A stretch of DNA of 64,000 bases from Gammaproteobacteria bacterium (GTDB lineage: Bacteria; Pseudomonadota; Gammaproteobacteria; UBA6429; Thiohalophilaceae). The translations under genes were made by a program, and so were the position numbers. The DNA lies in the NCBI GenBank assembly GCA_026196045.1, contig JAPHRJ010000042.1:4151-68150 (forward strand). The letters run 5' to 3'. Positions 828 to 33,065 of this stretch are shown piece by piece (positions within the stretch are counted from its first letter, which is position 1; every line of letters begins with the position of its first letter). The notes beneath the pieces were generated by a model that worked only from the letters and a program-made list of their open reading frames with translations, was not told where the DNA came from and did not search any database.

Positions 828-3065
828 CTATTCAATAACCTGGGGGCCTAATACACGTAATACTTCGTAAATTGTCGTTTGACCACTATCTACTTTTTTA
901 TAGGCATCCTGCAATATGCTACTCATACCCTGTTGTGTGGCCGCCTGAGTAAGTTCTCCAATATTGGCACCGGCAGCAATCATATTTTTCAAATCTGTGC
1001 CGGGCACCAGAATTTCATAGATACCAATTCGCCCGCTATATCCCGTATGATTACATTGTTTACAACCTGTTCCCTCAAATGTCTGCAGATTGTCATTTTT
1101 AAACACAGGACCCAGTTGATGTAAATCCTCGTCCCGAATCGCAACAGGCGCTCTGCAGACCTCACAGATCTTGCGCACCAGCCGCTGGGCGATAATTGCT
1201 TCTAATGCGGTCGATACAATATAGGGCTTTAGCCCCAGATCCAGAAGTCGAGCGATAGTTGCCACCGCCGAGTTGGTATGCAGTGTCGAAAAAACCAGAT
1301 GCCCTGTCAGGGCCGCATTAAAGGCCACTTCTGCAGTTTCAATATCCCTAATCTCACCCAGAAGAACAACATCGGGATCCTGGCGCAGAATGGCACGAAG
1401 TACCGTTGCAAAACTGAGACCGACCTTATCCTTCACCATCACCTGGCCGGCCATATCCAGATAGTATTCAACCGGGTCCTCAATGGTGACATAGTTCTTA
1501 TCGGCTGTAGCATTATGCTGCAGGAGTGAATACAGGGTTGTAGTTTTGCCGCTTCCAGTAGGCCCGGTTGCGAGGATAATGCCCTGAGGCTTTTTAATTA
1601 CATTGACCACTCTATTGAAGTCCTCTGTTTCCAGACCCAACTGGTTAACTTCATGGATCGATGAATTACGATCCAGTAAACGCATAACAATCTTTTCACC
1701 ATTAATGGTCGGTAATGTTGAAATACGCAGGTCAATAATGCGCATTGGTGTCTTTACCGTAATACGACCGTCCTGTGGTCGACGACGCTCTGTAATATCA
1801 AGTTCAGCCATCACCTTGATACGTGAAACCAGCGACATATGCAGGCTATGGGGTATCTGAATCTTGTCAGACAAAATACCATCGGTTCGATAACGCACCA
1901 CGACACTATTGGTACGAGGATGAATATGAATATCACTGGCCTGATAACGTATTGCTTCCAGAATAATGGCATTGACCAGGCGAATGGCCGGAGGCTCATC
2001 TGAACCGTGTAATAAATCCTCCAGTGTCAGATCATCATCATCATCAAGAATGATCTCGATCGCCTCAAAGGGATCTGTACTTGATATCAGGGTTTCCAGA
2101 TCATCAAAATTGATATCCTCATCACCATAAACCTCGGTAATTTTATCCTGAATATCGGCAGCATTCGCCATGACGGCCTGGATCTCCAGACCAACGGTAA
2201 AGCGCAGATCATCTATCAGCCCCATATCCATCGGATCTGCCATAGCCAGTAACAAACGCCGGTTTTCCTGTTTTAAAGGTAAAACTAACTGTCGCTCACA
2301 AAAGCTGCGCGGGATCAATGATGATATAGCCGAATCAACCTGGAACTCAGCTAGTGAGACTTCATCGACCAACAAATCTTTTTTTAGAATATCGCGAATT
2401 TTTTTCTCCGCGACCCATTCTTTATCCAGGAGGATCCGGATGGTGGGAATTTTCTTCGCCTGCTGTATTTTATAAAGTTCCTGTACCTGTTTGTCATTCA
2501 GGAGATTGCATTTATGCAACATAATAGCAAGCTGACTGCGATTACTGACAGCCAGTTTGGACAGCTCCGATATTTCCTTCGCCCTTTTCTCATTTTGTTT
2601 TTGCAGTATTTTATTGCGCTGAATCAGATCATGCTGTTCCAGTGCCAGACTGACAGTAACGCGCAGGTCATCATCATTCCAGGGCTTGAGGATGAATTTA
2701 TAAACGGCACCTTCCTTGATAGCACTCATTACCGCATCCGTATCTGCGTGGCCCGTTAGCATAATACGGATAGTTTCAGGATGTTGTTTCTTGACCCTCC
2801 TCAGCAACTCACCACCATTCATCACTGGCATATTGAAATCAGAAATTATGAGCTGGAACACCGATCCATCCATAACTTTTAACGCCTCCTCACCACTGCC
2901 TGCAGTCATGATGTGATAGTTTTCCTGCCGGAACACTCGCTTCAAGGCATTTAGCACATTGGGTTCATCATCGACCAGGAGTATATGATAACCTGAGCTA
3001 GTCTCAACGGGCTGTTCGCTATCACCGGACTCTCCGGCTGTAAATAGTGAGGAATATTGTGACAT
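828..3065 (-). CDS. Response-regulator receiver fused to a GspE/PilB/MshE-family (type II/IV secretion) ATPase
   Basis: Receiver at aa ~27-145 (LLVDDEPNVL, acceptor in IISDFNMP, KPWNDDDL). T2SSE_N-like segment at aa ~240-310 (LIPRSFCERQLVLPL...LLLAMADPMD). ATPase core: Walker A GPTGSGKTTT, Asp box VTIEDPVEY, Walker B DPDVVLLGEIRD, His box GHLVFSTLHTN, and a tetracysteine CEVC...CKQC. The ATG lies 3 nt after the stop of the upstream kinase. Confidence 0.9.
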   Translation of the reverse strand: MSQYSSLFTAGESGDSEQPVETSSGYHILLVDDEPNVLNALKRVFRQENYHIMTAGSGEEALKVMDGSVFQLIISDFNMPVMNGGELLRRVKKQHPETIRIMLTGHADTDAVMSAIKEGAVYKFILKPWNDDDLRVTVSLALEQHDLIQRNKILQKQNEKRAKEISELSKLAVSNRSQLAIMLHKCNLLNDKQVQELYKIQQAKKIPTIRILLDKEWVAEKKIRDILKKDLLVDEVSLAEFQVDSAISSLIPRSFCERQLVLPLKQENRRLLLAMADPMDMGLIDDLRFTVGLEIQAVMANAADIQDKITEVYGDEDINFDDLETLISSTDPFEAIEIILDDDDDLTLEDLLHGSDEPPAIRLVNAIILEAIRYQASDIHIHPRTNSVVVRYRTDGILSDKIQIPHSLHMSLVSRIKVMAELDITERRRPQDGRITVKTPMRIIDLRISTLPTINGEKIVMRLLDRNSSIHEVNQLGLETEDFNRVVNVIKKPQGIILATGPTGSGKTTTLYSLLQHNATADKNYVTIEDPVEYYLDMAGQVMVKDKVGLSFATVLRAILRQDPDVVLLGEIRDIETAEVAFNAALTGHLVFSTLHTNSAVATIARLLDLGLKPYIVSTALEAIIAQRLVRKICEVCRAPVAIRDEDLHQLGPVFKNDNLQTFEGTGCKQCNHTGYSGRIGIYEILVPGTDLKNMIAAGANIGELTQAATQQGMSSILQDAYKKVDSGQTTIYEVLRVLGPQVIE

Positions 3066-3068
3066 GGT

Positions 3069-4298
3069 CTACTCCTTCACAGGCAAGATAATTGTGAAAG
3101 TAGTTCCTGTATCTTCCTGACTGTCTACCGTAATAGTACCGTTATGTGCCGCGATAATGTCACGACTGACTGTTAAACCCAGACCTGTTCCTTCACCAAC
3201 ATCATGCGTAGTATAAAATGGATCAAAAATCCGCCTCATAACCTCGGCGGACATACCCTTACCATTGTCACTAACCCGTATCACAATCTCCCTATTTATT
3301 AATCCGGACTCAATTTGAATCTTACCAGCAGCCTTTTTAATTGCCGTCACTGCATTCAATAATATATTGAGAAATACCTGCGCCAAATGCCCTGGTCGAC
3401 AACGCGTCAAAGGTAGTTCTCCTAATGCCAGCTCTAGTTCAGCCTTTTGTCCGATCTGGTTGGTAGCTACATTGCACACAGAGTGTATGATCTGATTTAT
3501 ATTCAGTGTTGCTTCTTCAGTGCGATCAACATTTGAAAAGTCCTTGAGATCAGACACTATACCTGCAACACGCTCTGCACCACTAACGCTTTCCTTCAGT
3601 AGTTCATTAAAGTCTTGCAACATATATTCAATATCACATTCATCCCATACCCTCTTCAAAACTGGCCCATTCAGTTCTTTTTGTATTTGTTCACTAAACT
3701 TAACAATATTTGAGACATAGTTTTGTGCGGTGGCAAGATTGCTAGTAATAAAACCAACTGGATTATTAATTTCGTGTGCAATACCGGCGGCTAACTGACC
3801 GACTGAGGCCAGTTTTTCAGCCTGATAGAGTTGACGCTGGGCATTTTCGATTGTTTTAACCTGTTCCTCTACACGTTGCTCCAGATTCTGCGCCAGTGCT
3901 TTGTATTTTTCCTCTGAATCCATCAAGGCTTCATGTTTCTTCTGTAGCGCTTCATAATCGGCATGAACTGCTTCAACATGTAAATTTGATGCCATCAGAT
4001 AACGTTCAGCACTTTTTAATATCTGTTCCACAAGAATTGTTGCGCTATGTGTCACCTTACTGTCACCTGCTTGCAAATAGGCAACGGGCTCCAGCTGAAT
4101 GGTTAACGGGATCCTGATACTGTCTATCCTGTCATTGTATTCACCCAGCACACTGTCGCCAGCCATATTCAGTATGCAAACTGACTCACCTAGTAAGCTC
4201 CTCAATGCCTGCAACAGTTTTTCCCTGTTAACGCCTTTTAACAGGTCATCTATACTGAGTTCACGATCAAATGCCGCAATGGGGGTTTCCTTCATCAT
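3069..4298 (-). CDS. Cytoplasmic sensor histidine kinase with an uncharacterised ~100-aa N-terminal domain
   Basis: No hydrophobic segments, a coiled coil, HisKA H-box AAGIAHEINNPVGF, and HATPase_c (DNGKGM, GTGLGL). Its ATG overlaps the GTPase stop (ATGATGA at 4293-4298). Confidence 0.9.
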   Translation of the reverse strand: MMKETPIAAFDRELSIDDLLKGVNREKLLQALRSLLGESVCILNMAGDSVLGEYNDRIDSIRIPLTIQLEPVAYLQAGDSKVTHSATILVEQILKSAERYLMASNLHVEAVHADYEALQKKHEALMDSEEKYKALAQNLEQRVEEQVKTIENAQRQLYQAEKLASVGQLAAGIAHEINNPVGFITSNLATAQNYVSNIVKFSEQIQKELNGPVLKRVWDECDIEYMLQDFNELLKESVSGAERVAGIVSDLKDFSNVDRTEEATLNINQIIHSVCNVATNQIGQKAELELALGELPLTRCRPGHLAQVFLNILLNAVTAIKKAAGKIQIESGLINREIVIRVSDNGKGMSAEVMRRIFDPFYTTHDVGEGTGLGLTVSRDIIAAHNGTITVDSQEDTGTTFTIILPVKE

Positions 4299-4960
4299 GG
4301 CACACCCGTTTCGGTTGAAGTCATAACCGACATAATAAAGTCATGCTCTTTTATACCGTGCTTTGTATGCAGTTCGAAACGACGTTCCATAGCCGGGTAT
4401 ACCTGTCGCAGCAATTCAACAAAGGTTTCCTTTACACCATCACCATTCAATGCCGAACTGAAAAAAAGTGACCACTGAGTCTTATCCCATCGAGCAGAGA
4501 CTTCATCCTTACTGACAATATCGGGTAGATCGCGTTTATTAAACTGAATCACCAGGGGTAAAGACTCAAAATCCAGACCCGCCCGTGCACAATTGTCTGC
4601 AAGGTTTTGAAATGACTGAGCATTGTTCATACTCTGGCTGGATTGAGAATCGGCCACAAACACCACACCATCAGCACGGGACAATACCGCCTTACGGGTA
4701 CCGTCATGGGCAACCTGGCCGGGAACGGTAAACAGTTTAAACTTAATCAGTAGACCGGAAGGGGCACGAAAACCAATCGGAAGCAGGTCGAAAAACAAGG
4801 TACGATCATTTTTAGTTTCCATCGTCATGATGTCGCCCTTAAGTTCAGGCCGCAGCATGTCATACAAGCGCATCAGGTTTGTTGTCTTGCCACTTTGAGC
4901 AGGACCATAGTAAACCAGCTTGATGGTCAGTTTTTGTAACTGTTCATCGTACTCAGCCAT
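4295..4960 (-). CDS. MglA-family Ras-like small GTPase
   Basis: 221 aa. IKLVYYGPAQSGKTTNL (P-loop), DRTLFFDLLP (MglA-type switch I with the intrinsic Arg), TVPGQ (G3), VIQFNKRD (G4), SSAL (G5). Collinear with my recollection of Myxococcus MglA (KIVYYGPGLCGKTTNL...DRTLFFDFLP...TVPGQ...NKRD). Confidence 0.85.
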   Translation of the reverse strand: MAEYDEQLQKLTIKLVYYGPAQSGKTTNLMRLYDMLRPELKGDIMTMETKNDRTLFFDLLPIGFRAPSGLLIKFKLFTVPGQVAHDGTRKAVLSRADGVVFVADSQSSQSMNNAQSFQNLADNCARAGLDFESLPLVIQFNKRDLPDIVSKDEVSARWDKTQWSLFFSSALNGDGVKETFVELLRQVYPAMERRFELHTKHGIKEHDFIMSVMTSTETGVP

Positions 4961-4969
4961 ATTGTAGAC

Positions 4970-5503
4970 TTAAACATCATCCTCACTCAGGATAATAGAG
5001 CCATCCGTGGCCCAGTCCACCGAAAATAATTCCGGATGTTGATTTTTATATTGTTCAAGTATCTGTTTTCGTTTATCGAGTTCTTTCTGCTGTGCCCTGA
5101 CCTGGTCAGCAAGATGACGGTTTTCTACTAGCACATCTCGGAATGCCAATGCCTGTTTAATGGTAGAAATAAGTTCATAATCCTGCCAGGGCTTGGTTAC
5201 AAAGCGGTATATTTCGGCGTTATTAATTGCACCAAGCAGGGCTTCCAGATCCGTATGTCCACTGAGGATCAAACGCATAGAATTGGGTTGCAGGTTTTTT
5301 ACCTCACTGAGAAATTCGACCCCATTCATCTCAGGCATACGGTAATCAGAGAGAAACAAATCAAAATTAGTAACCTGAGCGCGTTTAAGTGCATCTTTCA
5401 CATTGGAATATGATTCTATTTCCCAGTCAGTCTGTCCCCTGAATATACGCTCCAGAGCTTTAAGAATATTTTCCTCGTCATCAACAAGCATAATCTGGTA
5501 CAT
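4970..5503 (-). CDS. Stand-alone response-regulator receiver with a ~55-aa coiled C-terminal tail
   Basis: MYQIMLVDDEENILK..., acceptor LFLSDYRMPEMNG, KPWQDYEL. I chose the internal ATG at 5503 because GGAGAA lies 6-7 nt upstream and the longer ORF would overlap the upstream gene. Confidence 0.85.
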   Translation of the reverse strand: MYQIMLVDDEENILKALERIFRGQTDWEIESYSNVKDALKRAQVTNFDLFLSDYRMPEMNGVEFLSEVKNLQPNSMRLILSGHTDLEALLGAINNAEIYRFVTKPWQDYELISTIKQALAFRDVLVENRHLADQVRAQQKELDKRKQILEQYKNQHPELFSVDWATDGSIILSEDDV

Positions 5504-5504
5504 G

Positions 5505-6851
5505 TTATTTCTCCTTATCCGCCAATACGTAAATTTCCAGCTCATAATCTATCGCTTCTTCAAGATTATAAATACGTTCAATAATGCCTTCGGTCAGACA
5601 ATGTCCCTGAGAGAGCAACAGTATGTCATCCTGTATGATTAAATCCCGTGAGAGCACCATACCACTAGCCAGCCCATTTGATTTTAAACGGCGTTCAGCT
5701 ACATGTTCACTGCGTTCCGCCAGACGACTGATAACTTTGCGGAATATATCAACAGATTTAGGGTCATAAAAACTACCCCGGTGTCTGATGATATAGTCTC
5801 GCGCATCACTTGAATTCAAAAATTCTGTCACCAACAGTCCCTGTTGGAGATCATAGTAGTCACCCGCCACTTTTAGTATAAGTGCGGCGACAGGGATAGA
5901 ATCACCTTTCCGTTTTTCTGGATAGCCTGAACCATCAATATGTTCGTGTTGATGATGTATCAGACGTGCCGCATCCTGTAATGGTTCCAGAGCCATTAAT
6001 ATTCCTTCACCCACAATAGGATGTTGAGTATATGTTTTGTGCTCACTATCATTCATAGTATTGAATGATTTTTTCAGTAGTGTATCGCTGAGGCTGATTT
6101 TACCGACGTTACGTAATAGTGCGGCAAAGCGAAGCTGTTGAGTATCAGCCTCATCCATGCCCATTTCTATTGCCATATGTTCAGCCAGTTCAGCGATCTT
6201 ACGTGTCCGACCACTGGTCTGATGTTCACGCATTTCAATAATATTTGAGAACACTTCAACGGTAGAACGATAACTATCATTTAATGACTCATGTGCAAGT
6301 TCCAGGAAACTCACGGTTTGCTGTAACTCCCCTGTGCGTGCGGCTACTTTATCTTCCAGGCCAGCATTTAAGGTCTTAAGCTGTTTATTCTGCTTTCTAA
6401 TTACGACTTCAAGACGACGGCGTTCTTTTTCAAGCCGTTGTTGCTCAAGTGCCCGCTGCACAGTAAGTAGAATATCATTATCTTCCCATGGCTTACTGAT
6501 ATAGCGATAAATTTGTCCTTTGTTTACTGCATCAATCGTTGATGTAATATCTGAATAGCCTGTTAATAATATACGTACTGTCATAGGCCAGCGCTTAGCA
6601 ACTTCTTCCAGGAATGCAGCCCCATCCATCTCGGGCATACGCATATCAGAAATCACAAGGTCAATGGAATAGTGCTCCATAAACTTCAAACCTTCTGCCC
6701 CACTTTCTGCGGTTAAAATATGATAACCATGAGGACGAAAAAGGCGCTTTAAAGATGACAGGATGTTTGTCTCATCATCAACAAACAATAGGGTCGGAGG
6801 GTGTGACTTTTTCTGACCTGTCTGTGCTTCGGTATTAATTACTTTATCCAT
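5505..6851 (-). CDS. Response regulator with a degenerate HD-GYP output domain (RpfG-like architecture)
   Basis: Receiver (LLFVDDETNIL, VISDMRMPEMDG, KPWEDNDIL), a coiled coil, then an HD-GYP domain with HEHIDGSGYP. The canonical LHDIGK reads LRNVGK (CGT AAC at 6108-6113). The start is set at MDKVINTE (6851), just after the upstream stop. Confidence 0.88.
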   Translation of the reverse strand: MDKVINTEAQTGQKKSHPPTLLFVDDETNILSSLKRLFRPHGYHILTAESGAEGLKFMEHYSIDLVISDMRMPEMDGAAFLEEVAKRWPMTVRILLTGYSDITSTIDAVNKGQIYRYISKPWEDNDILLTVQRALEQQRLEKERRRLEVVIRKQNKQLKTLNAGLEDKVAARTGELQQTVSFLELAHESLNDSYRSTVEVFSNIIEMREHQTSGRTRKIAELAEHMAIEMGMDEADTQQLRFAALLRNVGKISLSDTLLKKSFNTMNDSEHKTYTQHPIVGEGILMALEPLQDAARLIHHQHEHIDGSGYPEKRKGDSIPVAALILKVAGDYYDLQQGLLVTEFLNSSDARDYIIRHRGSFYDPKSVDIFRKVISRLAERSEHVAERRLKSNGLASGMVLSRDLIIQDDILLLSQGHCLTEGIIERIYNLEEAIDYELEIYVLADKEK

Positions 6852-6858
6852 AATTAAT

Positions 6859-8139
6859 TCATGCTTCCTTTGCTTCTTCTGAACTCTGGGAAACAGGCAA
6901 CCAAACTTTGAAAGTTGTTCCTTTTCCAGCTTCACTCTGAACATCAATGTTTCCATGGTGTTTATTTATAATCCCATACGATAATGATAATCCAAGTCCC
7001 GTCCCCTTCCCTACTTCCTTTGTTGTAAAAAAAGGATCGAATATCTTTTTCATATTCTCCGGTTCAATTCCTTTTCCTGTATCACTTATTTCTATCCATA
7101 TCTGCTCATCCTGTTTTCCAGTACGAACAGTTATTACGCCACGTTCTTCAATTGCATGTGCGGCATTTACCAATAGATTCATAAAGACCTGATTTACCTG
7201 TGATGCAAGACATTCAATATCAGGTAATTCGCCATATTCTTTTATGACTTCCGCCTTATATTTTATCTCGTTATTTACAATATTCAGTGTGCTGTCCAGG
7301 CCACGATGAATATTCGCCCATTGCCATTCAGCTTCATCAACATGAGAGAAGTCCTTGAGGTCCTGAACAATCCCTTTTACTCTCGCAATACCTTCGCGGG
7401 ATTCAGAGACCAGTTCCTGCATGTCACGTTTTAAATAGCCTAAATCCAGTTCCTGTTTAAGTTTTAGTAACTGTTCAAGTTTATCGCCACCTGATTCAAT
7501 CATTGACTCCAGGTTTTCATACGCCTCCAGTAACTGACAAATATCAGAAACATAAGTTTGTAACGTAGCTAAATTCGAAAAAACATATCCCACGGGGTTA
7601 TTGATTTCATGGGCAACGCCAGCAGCAAGCTGGCCTATTGATGCTAGCTTTTCTGACTGTAGTAATTGTTCATGCGTTTCATGTAAATGTTTATTCGCTT
7701 CCAGAAGATCGTCATGACTTTTTTTCAACTCCTGCTGTGTCTTTCGCGATTCCTCATCTGCACGATACAAACGAATTGCGGTATTAATACAGTGATGCAA
7801 TATTTCTGCATTCAGACTGTCCTTTGAAAGATAGTCTGAGGCACCGGCACGCAGTAGATCTACAATCAGTCGCTCATCAGGCTGGCCTGTCAGAATAACC
7901 ACCGGTATACCCAGTTTCTTCTCCTGGATACTGTTTAACATTGTCAGCCCATCACCATCTGGCAACATATAATCAAGTAATGCGCAGTCATATTGCGTTT
8001 TTGTCATGGCTTCAATAGCACCAGCGACACTATTTGACTCATCAATTCTGATATCAGGTTTACTTGCGCTCAGCGCACGGCAAACCGCCATGCGATCCAC
8101 GTCGTCATCATCCACAACAAGTATTTTTAGTTCACTCAA
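6859..8139 (-). CDS. Hybrid receiver-histidine kinase (N-terminal REC, then HisKA and HATPase_c)
   Basis: ILVVDDDDVDR with acceptor ALLDYMLPDGDG. H-box AAGVAHEINNPVGY, paralogous to the kinase at 3069-4298. DTGKGI and GTGLGL. TTG start with GGAGAA about 8 nt upstream. Confidence 0.9.
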   Translation of the reverse strand: MSELKILVVDDDDVDRMAVCRALSASKPDIRIDESNSVAGAIEAMTKTQYDCALLDYMLPDGDGLTMLNSIQEKKLGIPVVILTGQPDERLIVDLLRAGASDYLSKDSLNAEILHHCINTAIRLYRADEESRKTQQELKKSHDDLLEANKHLHETHEQLLQSEKLASIGQLAAGVAHEINNPVGYVFSNLATLQTYVSDICQLLEAYENLESMIESGGDKLEQLLKLKQELDLGYLKRDMQELVSESREGIARVKGIVQDLKDFSHVDEAEWQWANIHRGLDSTLNIVNNEIKYKAEVIKEYGELPDIECLASQVNQVFMNLLVNAAHAIEERGVITVRTGKQDEQIWIEISDTGKGIEPENMKKIFDPFFTTKEVGKGTGLGLSLSYGIINKHHGNIDVQSEAGKGTTFKVWLPVSQSSEEAKEA

Positions 8140-8179
8140 CCTACCGTTCTCCTATTGGTAAAATAACCGATACTGTATA

Positions 8180-8605
8180 TTACGGTAACCTTATTAATGA
8201 CCAGAACTGATATAAAGTATGGATTGCTTCATTAAATTTTTCCGGCTCGATTGGTTTCAGCACATAACCTGACACATTCAGTTCATAGGCTGCCTGTCGA
8301 TCCCTGTCCTCATCAGAGGTTGTTAATATCACGACACAGAGTGCACGCAAGGCCGGATCAGCCCGTAACTCGCGTAAAAATTCTATGCCATTCATTTTTG
8401 GCATATTTATATCCAGCAGGATAATTTTTGGCATGGGTGACAGTTTTGTTTCATGCTTCCCACGCAACATTGCCAGTGCATCAACACCATTACCTGCGAT
8501 ATATAACGGGTTATTAATCTTATGAAGACTGAAAGCACGTTGTACATTCATGGCATCTACTTCATCATCATCTACCAGCATAATGGCTACTTTATCGTCC
8601 AGCAT
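8180..8605 (-). CDS. Single-domain CheY-like response regulator
   Basis: 141 aa, IMLVDDDEVD, ILLDINMPKMNG, YVLKP. GGGAGA RBS upstream. Confidence 0.9.
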   Translation of the reverse strand: MLDDKVAIMLVDDDEVDAMNVQRAFSLHKINNPLYIAGNGVDALAMLRGKHETKLSPMPKIILLDINMPKMNGIEFLRELRADPALRALCVVILTTSDEDRDRQAAYELNVSGYVLKPIEPEKFNEAIHTLYQFWSLIRLP

Positions 8606-8617
8606 CCACTTATCTCC

Positions 8618-11242
8618 CTATGCAACCTGTTCCTCACTAGTCTCTACCGATACGACCTTTCCTTTTACCGGCAGGGTAAAACGGAATACGGCACCTTTTC
8701 CTTCTTCTGATTCTATTTCAACCTCTCCACCCAGTTCATTGACAATTTTCTTTACCAGCGTCAGTCCAACACCGGTGCTTTCTACACTATCGCGGGCCTG
8801 CAGCGTCTGAAACATATTAAATATTCTGTCATGGTATTCAGCGGCAATACCTGGCCCATCATCAGCAACACTGAATTCATAATATAGTACATTAAAGTCA
8901 GAATTATTCTGGCTATCCATATTGTCTTTACTGGTGATCAGTTTGCCCTCCAGTGTCCGTTCACGAACAGAAATATGAATATGGCCGTTATCCTTATGAT
9001 GGTACTTGATTGCATTACTAATCAAATTTGAAAAAACCTGAAATAGGGGAACACGGGCCGTCCTGACTAACGGCATACCAGGACTGATATCAATAGACAG
9101 ATCCTTGCAATCCAGTCCCTGCAGAATGTCCTTCAGCAGTCCAGATACATCTACCATTTCCATTTCCATATCCACGCGACCGGCCCGTGAATACTGTAAA
9201 ATGCCATTAATCAGTCCTTCCATGCGTGCTACTCGCCCACGCAACAGATCCATCTGCTTGCGAGTGCTGTCGGTCATAACGTCAGTAAGGTCTTCTTCTA
9301 TCCACTGAGAGAGGTTTGCAATTGCACGTAGTGGTGCCTTGAGATCATGAGATGTCACATAGGCAAACTGATCCAGTTCATGGTTGATACGCTCCAGTTC
9401 AACAAAAGCCCGCTTGCTTTCGGTTACGTCCGTATGTGAACCGGCAATTCGTACCGGGAAACCGTCCTCATCCAGCAATGCCAGACCTCGACAATGCATC
9501 CAGAGGTATTCGCCCGTTTTGCTTCGTACCCGGTATTCGATTGAAAAGGAACTGTTATCACCCGCCATACAGTCTGCCCATACATCCAGTGCATAGCCCA
9601 GATCATCGGGATGAATAAGACTCTGCAAGGCGATAAAGTTATTTTCAACCTCATACTCGGCATAACCCAGCATATTTTTCCAGCGCGATGAAAAATATAT
9701 CTGATCACGAGTCAAATCCCAGTCCCAGATACCATCCTGCGTTCCCCTTGTTACCAGTGAAAACCGCTCCTCACTGAGACGCAAGGCTTCCTCACTTTTC
9801 CTGCGTTGGGAAATATCACGCACAATACCAATAAAATGGACGCCTTCATGTTCCATTGGCAACTCACTTACTGACAGCTCTATTGGAAATTCATTACCAT
9901 CACTCCGTAATGCCGTTATCTCACGCGGTCCCTTGTTGATTATCTCTCCTTTGAGGGTGCCCCAATAATTTTCCTGATCAATATCTTGCTTATCGGTATC
10001 GGGAGCGAGCATTAACATACTTACATTCCGGCCTATCACTTCCCTGGCGTAATAACCAAACATACATTCGGCCGTGCGACTAAAACTTTCCACAACGCCT
10101 TGTGCGTTAATCGTAATAATACCATCGGCCGCATTCTCAATAATGGCATTTATCTTTTGTTTACTCTGTGTAAGCGCAACGACACTCTGCCGCAGATCTA
10201 CCTGCATCATTCTGCGTGCGCGCTGATTACGCAAAAACAGTATTAATATCACGACAAAAACGACCAGTACTAATAATGAAATTAACCACAGCAGACTCTT
10301 TTTCTTTTGTAACTCTTTTGACTGACTTTTAAACATCCCATCAAGTTCATCTTCTGTCGCATCAAATAGCCTGTATAACACACCCAATGTTTTCGTCCCT
10401 GCAGCGAAATAATTTTCACTCGACATACGTAATTGCGGCGTATCCCCTGTCTGTTTCTGTACCAGCAGTAAGAAATACCTGATACCTTCATTTACATCCT
10501 GCAGCTGTGGTAACAAGTTTGACCGCAGTTCCGGGTTGACAAGAAAAAGCACGTCCATATTCCGTTGCAGTTTATCCATTTCAATCTTAATAGACTCCTG
10601 CAGTATCGTGATTGGTTTAGTATCTGTCTCCGCAAGTTCGCTGTGCGTCACAATACCCGTTCCCATTCCTCTTATCTGGGCAATACTTTCTATTAACCTG
10701 GGTAACACAATTATGGATTCAGCAAGGTAGTAGGTATCCCTTCTTTTATCGGCGGTAAGACGAAAGAGATCAATCCCTTCATGCATGGAGGAGAGGTACT
10801 TTTCAATTATTACAGTATGTGCCGCAAACGTACCTGCTGGTGACATACGTGGATACTGTTGTAACAGTACATGCCAGTCTCTAAGCCACACCTTTTGGTT
10901 TTCTTTTACACCCGGCATCATTTGAATGGTGGGAAAACGATCCTGTATTTGCTGAATGTCCGCATTAATGTGTTGCGCCAGCTCTGGCAAGCTATCCCTG
11001 AAACCCTCTTTTCCGCTAAGGTAAGCGTAAGCCATACCACGATGTTGCTGAATATGATCAAGTAATACCCGCATGGATTCAATATAATCAATACCGATTT
11101 TCTGCTGGCTAATCAGGTGGCTTCTTGCCTCAAGCTCACTGCTAAGCAGATAAATGATGCTCGCAAAGGGCAACACCAGCATCAGTAACAGTAAGGTAAG
11201 GCTCAGGCTGTCTGTTGGTATTTTTCTATTGTGGTTGACCAT
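8618..11242 (-). CDS. Membrane sensor histidine kinase: periplasmic NIT-like domain, then two PAS domains, HisKA and HATPase_c
   Basis: Two TM segments (LTLLLLMLVLPFASIIYLL and LWLISLLVLVVFVVILILFL) bracket ~300 aa containing HIQQHRGMAYAYLSG and IAQIRGMGTGIV, which resemble NIT-domain motifs. Two PAS modules follow. H-box YVTSHDLKAPL, DDGPGI, GVGL. Confidence 0.85.
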   Translation of the reverse strand: MVNHNRKIPTDSLSLTLLLLMLVLPFASIIYLLSSELEARSHLISQQKIGIDYIESMRVLLDHIQQHRGMAYAYLSGKEGFRDSLPELAQHINADIQQIQDRFPTIQMMPGVKENQKVWLRDWHVLLQQYPRMSPAGTFAAHTVIIEKYLSSMHEGIDLFRLTADKRRDTYYLAESIIVLPRLIESIAQIRGMGTGIVTHSELAETDTKPITILQESIKIEMDKLQRNMDVLFLVNPELRSNLLPQLQDVNEGIRYFLLLVQKQTGDTPQLRMSSENYFAAGTKTLGVLYRLFDATEDELDGMFKSQSKELQKKKSLLWLISLLVLVVFVVILILFLRNQRARRMMQVDLRQSVVALTQSKQKINAIIENAADGIITINAQGVVESFSRTAECMFGYYAREVIGRNVSMLMLAPDTDKQDIDQENYWGTLKGEIINKGPREITALRSDGNEFPIELSVSELPMEHEGVHFIGIVRDISQRRKSEEALRLSEERFSLVTRGTQDGIWDWDLTRDQIYFSSRWKNMLGYAEYEVENNFIALQSLIHPDDLGYALDVWADCMAGDNSSFSIEYRVRSKTGEYLWMHCRGLALLDEDGFPVRIAGSHTDVTESKRAFVELERINHELDQFAYVTSHDLKAPLRAIANLSQWIEEDLTDVMTDSTRKQMDLLRGRVARMEGLINGILQYSRAGRVDMEMEMVDVSGLLKDILQGLDCKDLSIDISPGMPLVRTARVPLFQVFSNLISNAIKYHHKDNGHIHISVRERTLEGKLITSKDNMDSQNNSDFNVLYYEFSVADDGPGIAAEYHDRIFNMFQTLQARDSVESTGVGLTLVKKIVNELGGEVEIESEEGKGAVFRFTLPVKGKVVSVETSEEQVA

Positions 11243-11456
11243 AACTATCTAACTATGTCGCTGATTTCTGTCCCTTCAGACACGGTGCCGCCTGGCGTTT
11301 AAAGCAGGCTTTCCTTCTCAGTTATTAAAATCGTAATATTTTGCCGATTAAATTTATTCCAAAAATAAACGTCTATTTTCAGTTTTTTAGCGGCTTTTTT
11401 TTTGAGAACTTTAAAATTGGGCGTTATAACCCATACTAAAAAGAATAGTTTAATGG

Positions 11457-12302
11457 TCAGGACGCACTGTCAATCAGCTGATCAGAAAACCGGTTCAGGT
11501 TTTCAATTTCGCCCAGATAACTACGAATAATGTCCCAGTTCAGGCCTAAACGTGCGAGTACAGAGGATTTCAGGAAGGGAATAAGATCATCACCGCCATG
11601 GCCAATATTCAAACCACGACAAAGGATATCAGACAGGTGGATCAGTTCAGCAAGGGGCAAGGACGTTGCAGGCAACGAGTGATGACTCTTTATCGCATCG
11701 ACAACGGGTTTGGGAAGTTTCCAGCTCTGAGCGACCTGTGCCCCAACAAGCGTATGGTCAAAGCCGAGCACAGCCTGTTCCGCTTCCCTGATTAAGCAAT
11801 CATGCTCATCTCGATAGGCAAGTACTCGGGCGAAATCCTCTTCAAAGTAGACCGCCATTACCACCTTACCAATGTCATGCAGCAAACCCGCCGTAAACGC
11901 CAGCTCCTGATCCATGCCAGCGTGGTGAGCTAATACTCGCGCACAAATCCCCGTTCCAATCACATGTTGCCAGAACGAATGCCGGTCAAAGTTTTGATCC
12001 TCTGCGGGAGGAAAGTGCCCAATAATGCCAGCGGCAGTAACGATATTATATAAAGTATGGATACCCAACATGGTACCGGCATCTTTTAGAGAACCAATAT
12101 GCGCGGATAAACCATAAAAAGGTGAATTGGCAATATGTAAAATGCGGGCTGCAAGAGCTTGATCATGACTGGCTTCTTCCATCAACTCAGCCATTGCAAC
12201 ATCATCCCGTTGGAGTTGCGTCAACAGGTGCGTAACAATAACCGAAAGTGACGGTAACTGTTGAATTTCTTTACTAAGACTTTCACGTGTCAACTTAGCC
12301 AT
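11457..12302 (-). CDS. HDOD domain protein
   Basis: 281 aa. LPSLSVIVTHLL..., ILHIANSPFYG, GLLHDIGKVVM. These are typical HDOD signatures. Confidence 0.85.
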   Translation of the reverse strand: MAKLTRESLSKEIQQLPSLSVIVTHLLTQLQRDDVAMAELMEEASHDQALAARILHIANSPFYGLSAHIGSLKDAGTMLGIHTLYNIVTAAGIIGHFPPAEDQNFDRHSFWQHVIGTGICARVLAHHAGMDQELAFTAGLLHDIGKVVMAVYFEEDFARVLAYRDEHDCLIREAEQAVLGFDHTLVGAQVAQSWKLPKPVVDAIKSHHSLPATSLPLAELIHLSDILCRGLNIGHGGDDLIPFLKSSVLARLGLNWDIIRSYLGEIENLNRFSDQLIDSAS

Positions 12303-12323
12303 TCTGGCATCCGATAATTTTCA

Positions 12324-12650
12324 TTATTCAAGCGATTCCAGGCGATAGGCCATTAAAATGTTTTTCAGCTGTTGCATTTCCACATCATCCTGTACATGGC
12401 GAAACCGATGTTCAAACTGAGTGATACAGGTATTTCGTAAAGCCGCGATCTCTTCAGCACTCAGCTCCTGCTCAAACTCAATTGCAAGACTATTGATACC
12501 CCGTTTGCTCAGACTATCCAGTTGTTTTTTTGTTAATACAACACCAGAAACCATCAGGCAATTTCCACTGGCATCCAGTACATCCTGGGCTAATGTCATA
12601 CCTGCTGTTACCTGATCCAGGCCAAGTATTTTACTGCTCATTATTGTCAT
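12324..12650 (-). CDS. Small hypothetical protein, translationally coupled to the upstream receiver-PAS gene
   Basis: The ATG at 12650 overlaps the upstream TGA (ATGA). The sequence MTIMSSKILGLDQVTAGMTLAQDVLDASGNCLMVSGVVLTKKQLDSL resembles, from memory, the short N-terminal module seen on many HD-GYP and GGDEF regulators. That family assignment is not verified. Confidence 0.5.
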   Translation of the reverse strand: MTIMSSKILGLDQVTAGMTLAQDVLDASGNCLMVSGVVLTKKQLDSLSKRGINSLAIEFEQELSAEEIAALRNTCITQFEHRFRHVQDDVEMQQLKNILMAYRLESLE

Positions 12651-13474
12651 TCTGTATGCACCGGTATAATCACAAGAATCACACCTTCGGCATTCGAACT
12701 CTGGCCTATCTGCCTGCAATAGACATCAATATCATTGCCATTAACAACAAGACCTCGTGCATGCGCTTCCTGTTCTTCAACTGCACGTTTACATAACTCA
12801 CAGACTGCCGGGGTTATGATATTAGAAACATCTTTCCCTACAAGCGCAAAGTCTTTTCCATTCAGCAAGGTATAAGCTCTACGATTTGCCAGAACAACCG
12901 TTCCACTGCCATCAATACCTATGACGCCAACGGGCAGGTTCTCTAATACTTCCTGTGAAACCTGTAAAGCATGCATATTTAACAGAACTTCACGGGTTTT
13001 CTCTTCTACCCGTTGTTCCAAACCCTGATTAATTTTTTCCAGCTCAATGTTCGCTTCTTTCAGTTCCTGAGTCAGACGTTCATTTTCCCGCCCGAGCTCA
13101 TAATAACGAAATGCCTCTTCTACATTGGCGCGTAATAATTCATCTTCCCAGGGCTTGGTCAGAAATTTGTATATGGCTCCCTGATTGATTGCTTCTGTCA
13201 CTGTATTCAGATCGGTATAGCCGCTTAACACCATACGAACAGTATCCGGGTATGTCTCACGTACTTTGGAAAGAAACTGAACACCAGTCATTTCGGGCAT
13301 ACGTTGATCTGAAAGAATGACTCCGACACCAGCATGTTCGGCCAGTAGCTGTAAACCTTCCGTACCACCGCCCGCTTTTAATATACGATAACCGTCGCGT
13401 CGTAATACCCGTGTTAGTGAACGCAGGATATTTTCCTCATCATCAACCAGTAAAATAGTCCGTTCATTACTCAC
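12647..13474 (-). CDS. Response regulator: receiver, coiled coil, C-terminal PAS-like domain
   Basis: ILLVDDEENILRSL, ILSDQRMPEMTG, KPWEDELL. The C-terminus LENLPVGVIGIDGSGTVVLANRRA is PAS-like. The ORF track starts at TTG 13483, but the AGGGGA spacing favours GTG at 13474. Confidence 0.82.
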   Translation of the reverse strand: MSNERTILLVDDEENILRSLTRVLRRDGYRILKAGGGTEGLQLLAEHAGVGVILSDQRMPEMTGVQFLSKVRETYPDTVRMVLSGYTDLNTVTEAINQGAIYKFLTKPWEDELLRANVEEAFRYYELGRENERLTQELKEANIELEKINQGLEQRVEEKTREVLLNMHALQVSQEVLENLPVGVIGIDGSGTVVLANRRAYTLLNGKDFALVGKDVSNIITPAVCELCKRAVEEQEAHARGLVVNGNDIDVYCRQIGQSSNAEGVILVIIPVHTE

Positions 13475-13932
13475 TAAACTCAATCCCCTACGATTAAACT
13501 TACTAAAATTCTTTTATAGTTACTAGCCTGTTCAACCGCTTTTATGGAACGTATAAACAACACCAGACATAGCTACATTCCAGTTTAAACAAATGTTATC
13601 TACAAAAAATTGTATCTAATAAAATTGCCTAAGTAATTTATCCGGATTTTTTTTAAGAGTAATAAATATTTTTCTTAACTCTATAATTATATATATCGAC
13701 TTTATGACAATTTTCTTCAGTCTTCAATCGCAAGGACAACTATGTTTTCATTAGCAGACTAAACACGCGTCTACATTTAAAATGTATCTAAATAATTTAA
13801 CGGTTCAGATATCAGAAAATTACAGGCAAAATGATCTCTAGTGAAAAACCGGGCCGGAAAGATCGACATCGGTATTCAGCTATGAAAAGTATGGCGCTAA
13901 CCATGATATGAAAGTGATAGACCTGTCACCAT

Positions 13933-14166: not shown

Positions 14167-15258
14167 CTAATTGTTCTGAATAACAATGTTAGGGAAGCTA
14201 GCACTATAGTCCTTAGACTGCAGTGACAACTTGGCCGCAATGCGGCGGGCAATATCACGATAAATCTGAGCAATACGGCCTTCAGGATCAGCAACAACAG
14301 AAGGCTTGCCTTCATCTGTACCTTTACGAATAGACATTTCCAAAGGTAAGGAACCCAGCAGATCGACATTGTGCTGCTCGGCCATGCGTTCACCACCGCC
14401 AGCACCGAAGATATGTTCTTCATGACCACATTCACTACAAATATGAATACTCATGTTTTCGACAATACCCAGTACAGGTACTTCGACTTTCTCAAACATC
14501 TTCAGACCTTTGCGCGCATCCAGCAGGGCAATATCCTGAGGTGTGGTTACGATAACTGCACCCGTGACCGGAACCTTTTGCGCCAGCGTTAGCTGAGTGT
14601 CACCTGTACCTGGTGGCAGATCGATAATCAGGTAATCAACATCTTTCCACCTGGTTTCGTTTAATAGTTGCTCCAGCGCCTGGGTAACCATCGGGCCACG
14701 CCAGATCATCGGAGTTTCTTCATCAATCAGGTAACCAATCGACATGGACTGAATGTGATAGCTGTTCATGGGTTCCAGGCTCTTGCCATCGGCCGACTCA
14801 GGTTTCGCACTAACACCCAGCATACGAGGCTGGCTGGGACCATAGATATCGGCATCCAGAATACCGACTGTGGCACCTTCCGCTGACAATGCCAGCGCCA
14901 AATTAACCGAGGTAGTGGATTTACCCACACCTCCTTTACCGGAAGCCACAGCAATAATATTCTTCACGCCAGAAATGGTGTTCACACCTTTCTGAACCGC
15001 ATGTGAAACAATTTTATGGGTAATATTGAAAGTTGCTTCACTGACGCCATCAACCGCCTCAACTTTTTCTTTCAATTTTGCGGCCATATCCGCCTTGTAG
15101 CCATTAACTGGAAAACCCATTTCAATATCAACACTGACCTTGTCACCATCGATTTTAATATCCTTGATGGCCTTATTCGAAACTAAATCCCCTTCCAGAT
15201 AGGGGTCAATATATGCCTTAATGGCATCTTCAATCTGTGAGCGGGCAACTTCAGCCAT
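14167..15258 (-). CDS. apbC: Fe-S cluster carrier ATPase Mrp/ApbC
   Basis: N-terminal MIP18-like domain, then the deviant Walker A VASGKGGVGKST, then CSECGH. The start is set at MAEVARSQ (15258), with GGAGAG 6 nt upstream. It is divergent from metG, as in E. coli. Confidence 0.93.
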   Translation of the reverse strand: MAEVARSQIEDAIKAYIDPYLEGDLVSNKAIKDIKIDGDKVSVDIEMGFPVNGYKADMAAKLKEKVEAVDGVSEATFNITHKIVSHAVQKGVNTISGVKNIIAVASGKGGVGKSTTSVNLALALSAEGATVGILDADIYGPSQPRMLGVSAKPESADGKSLEPMNSYHIQSMSIGYLIDEETPMIWRGPMVTQALEQLLNETRWKDVDYLIIDLPPGTGDTQLTLAQKVPVTGAVIVTTPQDIALLDARKGLKMFEKVEVPVLGIVENMSIHICSECGHEEHIFGAGGGERMAEQHNVDLLGSLPLEMSIRKGTDEGKPSVVADPEGRIAQIYRDIARRIAAKLSLQSKDYSASFPNIVIQNN

Positions 15259-15515
15259 TCTTCTCTCCTGCAATCAAAAGGGTTATTAACAATTTTCCGG
15301 CTAATAACCTAGTAAAATGATAAACTATATTTCAGGGGGCATATTACACAAAATCCTGTCAGATAGCCACTGCTGAAAATAAGCCTGCTATTCTACAGGG
15401 AATCGCCATATTTTTCGCCTATCGGGTGGCTCAAACAGGCCAGAACTGATAGTGTATCGCCCGCCGAAAACAGTATTAAAATCAGTTAAATCAACAAAAT
15501 CCGTGAATATAAACT

Positions 15516-23542: not shown

Positions 23543-24169
23543 ATGTTTCAAACTGCCTTAACACAACAAATTTCTGCCGGCATTATCTGTGCACTGATAT
23601 TTATTCTTGTTTCTTATCTTGTAAACAAACGCCTGACCGCAAACACACTGAATCTGGATAAATACCTGATTACCCTTTATGCCACTACCGTTTTCCTCCT
23701 GGCCGTCATCTGTGAAGTGGGAGTAAATACTATTTATACTGGCTTCATTGGTGAACAACTATGGCAGTACCACATTATGCCGCGACATGGTGGAGATATT
23801 TCCCTGATGGCACCATTACTCTGGTCAGCTTATGGAGTACACCTCTATTTTGTAGAACAAACCTATGGGCTACGACTACCCGCTTTTCTTAAACGATATA
23901 AAGCCACAGCTTTACTACATGGCTTTGATGCACCCTTGATATTTGAGGTTTCCGGTAACCTGATCTTCCTGGCACTACTTGGGCAATATTATGCCTATTA
24001 CCTGCCGGGTGATTTATTTCATCTGACATCTTTACGCGTTATACCAATATATATCGTTTGTATTTTCATTGGACTATTAGTTTTACACTGGCTTGAAAAG
24101 CAACGTCGTCATTGGACAATTCCTGCTGGTTTATTTTCCAGTGGTGTTGTGTTTTTAGCGCTTGCCTGA
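23543..24169 (+). CDS. Hypothetical polytopic membrane protein
   Basis: 208 aa with about 5-6 hydrophobic segments. I cannot assign a family with confidence. Confidence 0.55.
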   Translation: MFQTALTQQISAGIICALIFILVSYLVNKRLTANTLNLDKYLITLYATTVFLLAVICEVGVNTIYTGFIGEQLWQYHIMPRHGGDISLMAPLLWSAYGVHLYFVEQTYGLRLPAFLKRYKATALLHGFDAPLIFEVSGNLIFLALLGQYYAYYLPGDLFHLTSLRVIPIYIVCIFIGLLVLHWLEKQRRHWTIPAGLFSSGVVFLALA

Positions 24170-31310: not shown

Positions 31311-31326
31311 TGTTAAACCTCGGTAA

Positions 31327-32687: not shown

Positions 32688-33065
32688 ATGTCACAAACAA
32701 TAATTGAACAATGGCTGCAAGATCTCAGTAACAGCATCATGTCCTTCGATCTAGAAGCGCACATGGCTCTGGTTTCCAGCGAAGTCCAGGTTTATGGACT
32801 TCCCAGCGGTAAAGTGGTGAACTACCAGCAATGGAAAATTCGTCGGCAGAATGAATTCAATAATGAAGAATTGCAGGGCCTTTCCTATACCTTATTAAAG
32901 GTGAAAAACATGACCCTTCGCCGCCTGGTATTTAATGTTGAAGAAAACATGCAGGCCAGAGATGGCCCATCTTTTATGGTCAACAAAGACATTATCCTTG
33001 AACTGGAAGAAGACAATTGCTGGCGCGTGGTCGAGGAAAAAATACATCACTGGAAAGCCAGCTAA
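32688..33065 (+). CDS. Hypothetical protein, possibly with an NTF2/SnoaL-like fold
   Basis: 125 aa, a clean ORF 17 nt upstream of fumC. The fold guess comes only from size and alternating beta-like segments, and it is not verified. Confidence 0.45.
   Translation: MSQTIIEQWLQDLSNSIMSFDLEAHMALVSSEVQVYGLPSGKVVNYQQWKIRRQNEFNNEELQGLSYTLLKVKNMTLRRLVFNVEENMQARDGPSFMVNKDIILELEEDNCWRVVEEKIHHWKAS

Follow-up and report, generated by a model that had tools for sequence, protein, structure and literature searches.

What is understood of Ras-like GTPases in bacteria comes almost wholly from MglA/MglB of Myxococcus and a small number of relatives, and links of bacterial small GTPases to two-component signalling are known only through indirect, unlinked partners. 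The locus described here lies in a stretch of 64,000 nucleotides from a gammaproteobacterial genome (family Thiohalophilaceae, assembly GCA_026196045.1, contig JAPHRJ010000042.1, positions 4,151 to 68,150; hereafter the window), and encodes, one after the other, an MglA-family GTPase, a soluble histidine kinase and a PilB-type ATPase with an N-terminal receiver domain (REC). These three genes, referred to as the triad, stand at the end of a row of eleven genes (g01 to g11 in gene order) and are located as follows:

4295-4960, minus strand: g09, MglA-family small GTPase of 221 residues (Pfam Arf/Ras), first gene of the core triad
3069-4298, minus strand: g10, soluble histidine kinase of 409 residues (Pfam HisKA, HATPase_c), second gene of the core triad
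828-3065, minus strand: g11, ATPase of 745 residues composed of REC, an MshEN-like domain, N1, N2 and a C-terminal ATPase domain (Pfam Response_reg, MshEN, T2SSE), third gene of the core triad

The MglA/MglB module has been described in M. xanthus, Thermus and Bdellovibrio; it is of Group 1 of the MglA family, and SofG positions PilB and PilT. With this module g09 shares the threonine of the TxxGQ motif, the arginine finger, the glutamine and the NKxD motif, its nearest structures are those of MglA, and in both cases a small GTPase is linked to a PilB-type ATPase. In contrast to MglA, g09 lacks an adjacent or recurrent nearby MglB, carries alanine at the position of Ras G12 and a conserved tail of about 25 residues, and shares a putative operon with a histidine kinase gene and that of the ATPase; its hosts are beta- and gammaproteobacteria, groups without GTPase-polarity studies.

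An MglA-family GTPase beside a histidine kinase is also found in the Streptomyces conservon (PMC4316618), which is a second precedent for such a GTPase working with a histidine kinase. The conservon comprises a membrane-bound HAMP kinase with an LPxR tail (CvnA), a Roadblock protein (CvnB), CvnC and a Group 2 GTPase with the G4 motif NxFD (CvnD), and contains no response regulator, whereas the triad has a soluble kinase without HAMP, neither Roadblock protein nor CvnC, the G4 motif NKRD and a receiver-fused ATPase as the next gene.

The kinase finds its counterpart in the NosP-NosK-NosR and H-NOX-HnoK systems. In Burkholderia, the soluble kinase NosK has about 400 residues, the motif H-E-I-N-N and no recognised sensor; it is controlled by the adjacent NosP and phosphorylates the REC-HD-GYP protein NosR (PMC12570481). 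The triad resembles this arrangement in kinase type and in the small protein encoded beside the kinase, and a REC-HD-GYP partner, often degenerate in the Nos systems (PMC12570481), is represented in the window by g07, which scores 550 bits against an NCBIfam NosR-family cut-off of 400. The accessory protein of the triad is, however, a GTPase and not a haem-binding FIST or H-NOX protein (Pfam found no FIST domain in the eleven proteins), and the output is a PilB-type ATPase and not an enzyme of cyclic di-GMP (c-di-GMP) metabolism.

The ATPases MshE, PilB and GspE, which are regulated by c-di-GMP, have the same order of MshEN, N1, N2 and C-terminal domains as g11, as well as its catalytic motifs and zinc site. 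They differ from g11 in that RLG...G...Q of the second c-di-GMP-binding motif is replaced throughout the g11 family, a phospho-receiver stands in front and no pilus or gsp genes are adjacent. The combination of MshEN with REC, among other partners, is on record for some proteins (Wang et al. 2016, PMC5013675).

The triad operon itself appears to be undescribed. No description of it, nor any characterised system of such composition, was found by searches with locus tags, with MglA or Ras-like GTPase combined with PilB/GspE or receiver, and with the host genera in full-text literature, a body from which subscription journals are largely absent; the statement to that effect in the initial annotation, which was made from the letters of the window, agrees with this outcome. 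Its impression that the system is unfamiliar holds for the operon and not for the GTPase, the subfamily of which was already catalogued in 2014: four members (Daro_0968, HCH_00229, MEALZ_0921 and Metme_1144) are listed as Group 1 MglA proteins without an adjacent MglB (PMC4316618, Table S2). In the same work, Wuichet and Sogaard-Andersen (2014) reported that Group 1 MglA neighbourhoods vary widely, and the triad operon is not described there (PMC4316618).

The reading favoured here, to which a probability of about 0.5 is given, is that the triad gates a pilus-type motor: the GTPase would gate the kinase, the kinase would set the phosphorylation of the receiver, and the ATPase would drive a machine encoded elsewhere.

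Conservation of the triad

Two peptides specific to the GTPase subfamily were searched in 185,579 species-representative genomes (one genome per species). At least 599 matching stretches were obtained, at least 570 of which encode a relative of g09. The loci of the best 80 of these relatives were fetched and compared with the eleven window proteins by tblastn. The order GTPase, kinase, REC-ATPase was found in every comparable locus, the ATPase being present in 64 of the 64 loci with enough DNA. The kinase adjoins the GTPase in 76 of 78 loci, with a median spacing of -1 nucleotide (25 ATGA-type overlaps of four bases; 30 nucleotides or less in 72 of 75 loci), and the ATPase follows the kinase at a median distance of 5 nucleotides. 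An overlap of the same type was confirmed in the window, where the start of g10 and the stop of g09 share ATGA. The pairwise divergences of the three proteins correlate (r = 0.72-0.85, 62 loci), and the GTPase is the most constrained (mean pairwise identity 69%, compared with 49% for the kinase and 66% for the ATPase). The co-occurrence and co-localisation of the three genes in other genomes, proposed as a check in the initial annotation, are thereby established.

Since every comparable locus in other genomes shows g09 to g11 in one and the same order, the triad is not a product of chance. A fortuitous adjacency, in which two-component genes have accumulated around a functionally unlinked GTPase, kinase and ATPase, could draw on the tendency of signalling genes to cluster and on the variability of the upstream part between genomes; it is given next to no credence in view of the identical order across several bacterial orders, the conserved stop/start overlaps and the correlated divergence.

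The hosts are mostly Gammaproteobacteria sensu lato, among them Methylomonas, Methylotuvimicrobium, Sedimenticola and Thiohalomonas, and include the former Betaproteobacteria Sulfuricella, Gallionella, Thiobacillus, Dechloromonas, Zoogloea and Methylophilaceae. A few loci come from metagenome-assembled genomes (MAGs) of Desulfobacterota. Two copies of the triad on different contigs (loci L011 and L042) were observed in a single MAG, CAZLJK01, of an uncultured Sulfuricella.

The eleven genes were originally regarded as one island with the GTPase and the ATPase as the common target of three kinases and six receivers. The inventory behind that view was confirmed by the open reading frame (ORF) list and by Pfam: positions 828-13483 hold eleven co-directional genes on the minus strand with the domains assigned to them. 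The unity of the island was not confirmed, and the convergence describes one genome and not the family. Only the triad is universal. A REC-HD-GYP gene lies within 3.6 kb upstream in 44 of 66 loci and a kinase of the g06 type in 43 of 66; a REC-only gene directly precedes the GTPase in 34 of 66; REC-PAS genes were found in 29 of 50 loci, HDOD genes upstream in 21 of 50, and the g04 type upstream in only 7 of 50. Methylomonas and several other genomes have the triad without any other gene of the window cluster directly upstream. In the nearest relative with the same apbC and dcd flanks (L015, JASBTR010000074.1), g01-g04 are followed by the triad and then by g05-g08, a rearrangement that respected the module boundaries. 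The conserved unit consists of the last three genes only, and the eight upstream genes form a variable, c-di-GMP-flavoured accessory set.

Machinery that the ATPase might serve was sought in the window and around the related loci. No T2SSF/PilC, secretin, pilin, PilT or Roadblock/MglB protein was detected in the 64-kb window by Pfam scans that included 45 further ORFs beyond position 13483 (ORFs of at least 90 residues, overlaps removed greedily, a procedure that could miss a very small or overlapped gene), as had been noted at the outset. All-against-all clustering of 1,092 ORFs from the 80 loci gave no additional conserved neighbour (platform, pilin, PilZ or MglB) beyond the gene types of the window. 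Likewise, Pfam analysis of the 89 nearest unlabelled ORFs returned no recurrent platform, pilin, secretin, PilZ or Roadblock protein, the only recurrent newcomer being a PAS-GGDEF-EAL-REC protein.

The GTPase

The best solved structures for g09 are those of MglA from M. xanthus and T. thermophilus (E about 4e-42), followed at a distance by Rab27 (8e-5), and the original designation of the protein as MglA-like was well chosen. In an alignment of the window protein with 12 relatives (n = 13), the following elements are invariant: TVPGQ at residues 78-82 (T78, Q82), the intrinsic arginine finger R53 (within DRTLFFD), the G4 motif NKRD at 141-144, A21 at the Ras G12 position, and L197, H201 and F208 in the conserved C-terminal tail of about 25 residues. 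In the alignment with M. xanthus MglA, R53 and Q82 are matched by the same two residues. Threonine in place of the usual aspartate in G3 (TxxGQ; Thr78 in M. xanthus MglA) is a trait of the MglA family (PMC3000849), and the canonical G4 motif [NT]KxD is a criterion for Group 1 MglA (PMC4316618). On these sequence features g09 is a true MglA-family GTPase of the Group 1 kind, and with R53, T78, Q82 and NKRD kept it looks active. MglA carries Gly21, and the exchange G21V reduces its kcat (PMC3000849).

Identity within the GTPase subfamily amounts to 58-76% across classes, and g09 is 46-47% identical to canonical-looking MglA sequences. When the library was clustered at 50% identity, the subfamily shrank to a few entries, the next relatives being 38-52% identical. 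Neither the window nor the recurrent neighbours of the 80 loci contained MglB or another Roadblock protein (Pfam, ORF clustering).

The receiver-fused ATPase

The product of g11 has the full-length PilB architecture with the tetracysteine zinc site; an alignment with M. xanthus PilB pairs its residues 180-739 with residues 6-561 of that protein (E 1e-129). Scores against the NCBIfam models were 568.3 bits for PilB (TIGR02538, cut-off 675.65) and 560.1 bits for GspE (TIGR02533, cut-off 630.25), so that the protein is slightly nearer to PilB than to GspE. The earlier assignment to the GspE/PilB family is retained as far as a full-length PilB type with an added receiver is meant, and falls short of the NCBI cut-offs for either protein.

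Residues D76, T104 and K127 of the receiver, Walker A and B, the Asp and His boxes, the four cysteines and the motif RRRPQDGR are each present in 49-60 of 60 aligned sequences, and the acidic pocket of the receiver (DD32-33) is kept in nearly all of them. The components of g11 accordingly look active, judged by the retention of catalytic boxes, zinc cysteines and receiver D/T/K residues in nearly all 60 sequences. MshEN's motif for c-di-GMP binding occurs in two copies of 24 residues each, RLGxx(L/V/I)(L/V/I)xxG(L/V/I)(L/V/I)xxxxLxxxLxxQ (PMC5013675). The first copy is partly kept in g11 (Q-L-A...N/G...Q); the second is P-[VIL]-I...[DGE]...[ED] in the majority of the 60 sequences of the alignment, the canonical R-L-G...G...Q having been lost. 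Because this second motif is altered across the family, the receiver may take over from c-di-GMP in the control of the ATPase.

PilC/PilD, pilus or gsp genes near g11 were found neither in the window nor recurrently in the 80 related loci. Unlinked pilB genes exist in some bacteria, and the full-length likeness to PilB together with the high scores against both models could mean that g11 is the standard PilB or GspE belonging to a complete pilus or type II secretion system whose other genes lie elsewhere, its neighbours being regulators in an unusual arrangement. Such an identity is considered distinctly improbable: g11 stays below both equivalog cut-offs (568 vs 675.65 and 560 vs 630.25 bits), and the added receiver and the altered MshEN motif are conserved across the family. 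Moreover, Dechloromonas aromatica, which carries a GTPase of the g09 subfamily (Daro_0968), reportedly has several pilus and PulDEFG-type clusters, one pilus cluster being equipped with its own ATPase and a PulF-type protein (PMC2907700). The scores below the PilB and GspE cut-offs and the separate pilus ATPase of D. aromatica suggest that g11 is an additional paralogue and not the cell's regular PilB or GspE.

The missing linkage to a platform, pilin or secretin, both in the window and as a recurrent feature of the 80 loci, would also suit an ATPase that is not a motor of the known kind, but a signalling or regulatory protein (for example in exopolysaccharide or biofilm formation) or the engine of an unrecognised type of machine, the triad then being a self-contained signalling device. 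M. xanthus PilB is reported to be a signalling protein for exopolysaccharide production (PMC5544727), and the accessory genes encode regulators of the c-di-GMP/biofilm type (HD-GYP, GGDEF-EAL, HDOD). This explanation is judged improbable, since g11 aligns with PilB from end to end and keeps the N1 domain, the zinc cysteines, the arginine fingers and the catalytic boxes, a degree of conservation that is most simply explained by docking onto a platform of the PilC/PilM type. The gating of a pilus-type motor is therefore preferred for g11.

The kinase and the GTPase-kinase fusions

The phospho-acceptor histidine of g10 lies in the motif H-E-I-N-N. The AlphaFold2 model of the protein (predicted local distance difference test 83 overall and 90 for residues 1-112) predicts an alpha/beta N-terminal domain of about 80 residues, a very long coiled-coil helix, the dimerisation and histidine phosphotransfer domain and the catalytic and ATP-binding domain. 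The N-terminal domain is modelled with short helices at residues 8-11 and 16-20, a longer helix at 25-36 and four strands, after which the long helix begins. Pfam has no family for this domain, and Foldseek against the PDB gave weak GAF matches (E 0.06-0.3); the sensor content of g10 comprises this family-specific GAF-like domain and no other sensor. A hidden MglB/Roadblock domain was considered at this position and is not supported, the Foldseek matches being weakly GAF-like and Pfam giving nothing.

The NCBIfam name T2SS_HK (NF038348) was also rejected, in this case for g10 and its upstream paralogue g06. Both proteins and eight relatives (from L002, L013, L017, L027, L028, L048, L068 and L074) match about 290 C-terminal residues of the model strongly, with 245-407 bits, and leave its N-terminal half unmatched; all are below the cut-off of 450 bits. 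To judge from these alignments, the T2SS_HK subfamily, named after type II secretion, is a close relative of the g06 and g10 kinases, and it may mark a sister system.

Three unrelated proteins of 665-745 residues, located on real contigs, were found in the search of representative genomes to join an MglA-like GTPase N-terminally to PocR/GAF and HisKA-HATPase domains: P0247 (L082:3045-5042), P0293 and P0336 (L083:2211-4448; L084). Their GTPase part is 41-44% identical to g09, and their domain order corresponds to g09 followed by g10. In locus L083, the fusion gene is followed by a gene for a protein with TPR and PatA_N (PATAN), a domain already linked to MglA/MglB neighbourhoods.

Proposed mechanism and its main rival

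The GTPase had been taken as an end point of the phosphorelay. Given the GTPase-PocR/GAF-kinase fusions, and NosK-type kinases that are run by an adjacent protein, it is more likely the input of the adjoining kinase. According to the proposal, the GTPase would bind, depending on its nucleotide state, to the GAF-like N-terminal domain of this kinase and switch it between kinase and phosphatase activity. The kinase g10 would in turn set the phosphorylation of Asp76 in the receiver of the ATPase. This receiver, placed ahead of an MshEN-like domain without the canonical c-di-GMP site, would gate the assembly or the activity of the hexameric ATPase, which would power a machine of the type IV pilus kind, or of a related filament, with genes at another place in the genome. 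The genes upstream of the triad would act as optional modules (a variable sensor kinase; REC-HD-GYP with REC-only; REC-PAS or PAS-GGDEF-EAL-REC with the small protein and HDOD) that bring environmental signals to the same class of receivers and provide a link to c-di-GMP turnover. The GTPase-kinase contact, the direction of signalling, the phosphotransfer to the ATPase and the target of the ATPase are those that we infer from the arrangement of genes and domains.

In its boldest form, the proposal describes a G-protein-gated two-component system, in which a GTPase without MglB is the sensory input of a kinase and the direct output is control of a PilB-type motor by phosphorylation. This form is put forward tentatively, at somewhat less than even odds. 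The input would then perhaps report the guanine-nucleotide state or some exchange factor.

Several observations weigh against the proposal. The N-terminal domain of g10 shows no significant likeness to Roadblock/MglB or to any solved GTPase-binding domain (Foldseek against the PDB, best E 0.06). The GTPase identity of the fusion proteins, 41-44%, is low; inspection of their neighbours revealed no REC-PilB gene beside a fusion gene; and in a profile comparison with the N-terminal domain of g10, homology of the fusion sensor domain was not supported, the kinase core alone being aligned. Methylomonas methanica carries unlinked MglB genes (PMC4316618, Table S2). The operon is read from the gene spacing, because a scan for promoters and terminators found sites in a number no higher than expected by chance. 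The roles of all three triad proteins are predictions from sequence. In Myxococcus, finally, the logic is reversed: MglA has response regulators upstream of it, and the pilus ATPases are in turn acted on by MglA or SofG (PMC4316618). Such an order would fit the REC-only gene that half of the loci have immediately before the GTPase gene.

The last points lead to the main rival. In a Myxococcus-like order, phosphorylated receivers such as g08 would act on the GTPase as RomR/RomX act on MglA, the GTP-bound GTPase would recruit or activate the ATPase at the pole, and the kinase would phosphorylate the receiver of the ATPase independently. The precedent is a close one: in M. xanthus, the positioning of PilB and PilT at the poles and their use are under the control of MglA and SofG, and MglA interacts with the response regulators RomR, FrzS and AglZ (PMC4316618). 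The position of the REC-only gene (34 of 66 loci) and the resemblance of g09 to canonical-looking MglA (46-47% identity, arginine finger and catalytic glutamine kept) are consistent with it. Many genomes, however, have the triad without g08 or any other receiver gene; it is the kinase gene that always adjoins the GTPase gene, often overlapping it; the GTPase holds the position of an input domain in the GTPase-GAF/PocR-kinase fusions; and no RomR, RomX or MglB-like gene recurs nearby in the 80 loci. The Myxococcus-like order is thus regarded as unlikely, and the GTPase as input of the kinase is preferred.

If the preferred reading is correct, G-protein-gated logic would be widespread, extending to hundreds of beta- and gammaproteobacterial species that include methanotrophs, iron and sulfur oxidisers and denitrifiers. 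If, in addition, the ATPase serves an ordinary type IV pilus, the triad would probably serve bacteria of environmental importance as a conditional control on attachment, twitching or the formation of biofilms. The triad consists of three purifiable proteins, for which assays of GTPase-dependent kinase activity, phosphotransfer to the ATPase and phosphorylation-dependent ATPase activity suggest themselves, and the tractable hosts include Methylomonas, Methylotuvimicrobium, Zoogloea, Dechloromonas and Hahella. Its study would show how phosphorylation, instead of c-di-GMP, can switch pilus-type motors, and whether a G protein can be the input of a kinase in bacteria.

Accessory genes

The eight genes upstream of the triad and the single large intergenic gap are located as follows:

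12647-13483, minus strand: g01, REC-PAS response regulator with an RpfG/NosR-type REC (Pfam Response_reg, PAS)
12324-12650, minus strand: g02, protein of 108 residues paired with the HDOD gene, ATGA overlap with g01
11457-12302, minus strand: g03, HDOD protein of 281 residues (Pfam HDOD, E 3e-55)
11243-11456, no strand: intergenic gap of 214 nucleotides between g03 and g04
8618-11242, minus strand: g04, membrane sensor kinase with a NIT-like outer domain and PAS-PAS-HisKA-HATPase (Pfam PAS, PAS_3, HisKA, HATPase_c), genome-specific
8180-8605, minus strand: g05, CheY-like single receiver of 141 residues (Pfam Response_reg), genome-specific
6859-8139, minus strand: g06, REC-HisKA-HATPase hybrid kinase, paralogue of g10 (Pfam)
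5505-6851, minus strand: g07, REC-HD-GYP response regulator, degenerate in this copy (Pfam Response_reg, HD_5)
4970-5503, minus strand: g08, single-domain receiver with a C-terminal tail of about 55 residues, 177 residues in total (Pfam Response_reg)

From g04 to g11, the successive genes are separated by 12, 40, 7, 1, 9, -4 and 3 nucleotides (computed with the starts 6851 for g07 and 5503 for g08). These distances, the gap and the overlap of g01 with g02 had been given correctly in the initial annotation. The gap is a possible boundary between transcription units. An Rfam scan of the region, gap included, gave zero matches to RNA families or riboswitches at E 0.1 or below.

All six receivers match Pfam Response_reg. 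Those of g01, g07, g08 and g11 are of one paralogous, RpfG/NosR-like type (39-48% identity; g08 is 39-44% identical to the other three), whereas the receiver of g05 differs from these and is of a type rare in other loci. The kinase core of g06 is 48% identical to that of g10, and both carry H-E-I-N-N; since their candidate receivers are of one paralogous type, the two kinases plausibly address the same ones. In relatives of g06, the N-terminal domain is GAF, PAS or another domain.

The REC-HD-GYP protein g07 keeps the receiver residues DD26-27, D70, T98 and K121, which nearly all aligned sequences have as well. In the window copy, the HD-GYP domain reads RN for HD and QHE for HHE and so lacks the metal-binding and catalytic residues, as its description as degenerate had implied. 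Among 45 aligned copies, the window included, 32 keep HD, HHE and DGxG[YF]P and look catalytically intact by these motifs. The metal ligands have been lost in two distinct groups of loci: the first contains the window (RN/QHE) together with L002-L004, L015 and L046, with variants such as HN/QHE and RN/YCE; the second (LD/HRE) comprises L027, L030, L037, L038, L054 and L068, mostly from Gallionella-like MAGs.

There is weak support for the NIT-like character attributed to g04. The stretch that separates its two hydrophobic segments covers nearly the full Pfam NIT profile (positions 2-230 of 239, E 0.002), and its score of 18.8 bits lies below the cut-off of 24.9.

For g02, neither Pfam nor NCBIfam gave a family match. 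An ORF of about 106 residues precedes the HDOD gene at the same place in several loci, including that of Sulfuricella denitrificans, which likewise has an HDOD gene. In 22 loci, REC-PAS is replaced ahead of the small protein and HDOD by PAS-GGDEF-EAL-REC (for example L006:1787-5383 and L081:1521-5477), and 22 of the 89 unlabelled ORFs nearest the clusters are of this type. Because PAS-GGDEF-EAL-REC holds the REC-PAS position in many genomes, the accessory module is tied to c-di-GMP turnover. The complete order in S. denitrificans is PAS-GGDEF-EAL-REC, small protein, HDOD, GAF-kinase, REC-HD-GYP, REC, GTPase, kinase and REC-ATPase.

Remainder of the window

The eleven genes are flanked by dcd (148-714) and by apbC/mrp (14167-15273), with a divergent metG beyond the latter. 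A foreign origin of the region 828-13483 was rejected because its G+C content resembles that of the rest of the window. The remaining genes are of the housekeeping kind: rnf, nth, argG, motY, a 2-oxoacid dehydrogenase cluster, fumC, asnB, sodB, arg genes, pst-phoU and phoBR.

An ORF of 1019 residues (27122-30181, minus strand) encodes two lipoyl domains, an E3-binding domain, the catalytic domain of the E2 acyltransferase and a complete dihydrolipoamide dehydrogenase (E3). It is situated downstream of the E1 alpha and beta genes (30330-31370 and 31327-32337), and an E2-E3 fusion of this kind is unusual. A MASE1-PAS sensor kinase is encoded at 40003-42081 (minus strand), for which Pfam gives HATPase_c and, at E 1e-6 or below, no HisKA. 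Little family signal was obtained for three further ORFs on the plus strand (23543-24169, 32688-33065 and 34542-35594): two of them, with 208 and 125 residues, have no significant family, and the third, a protein of 350 residues, has a C-terminal FHA domain as its sole match.

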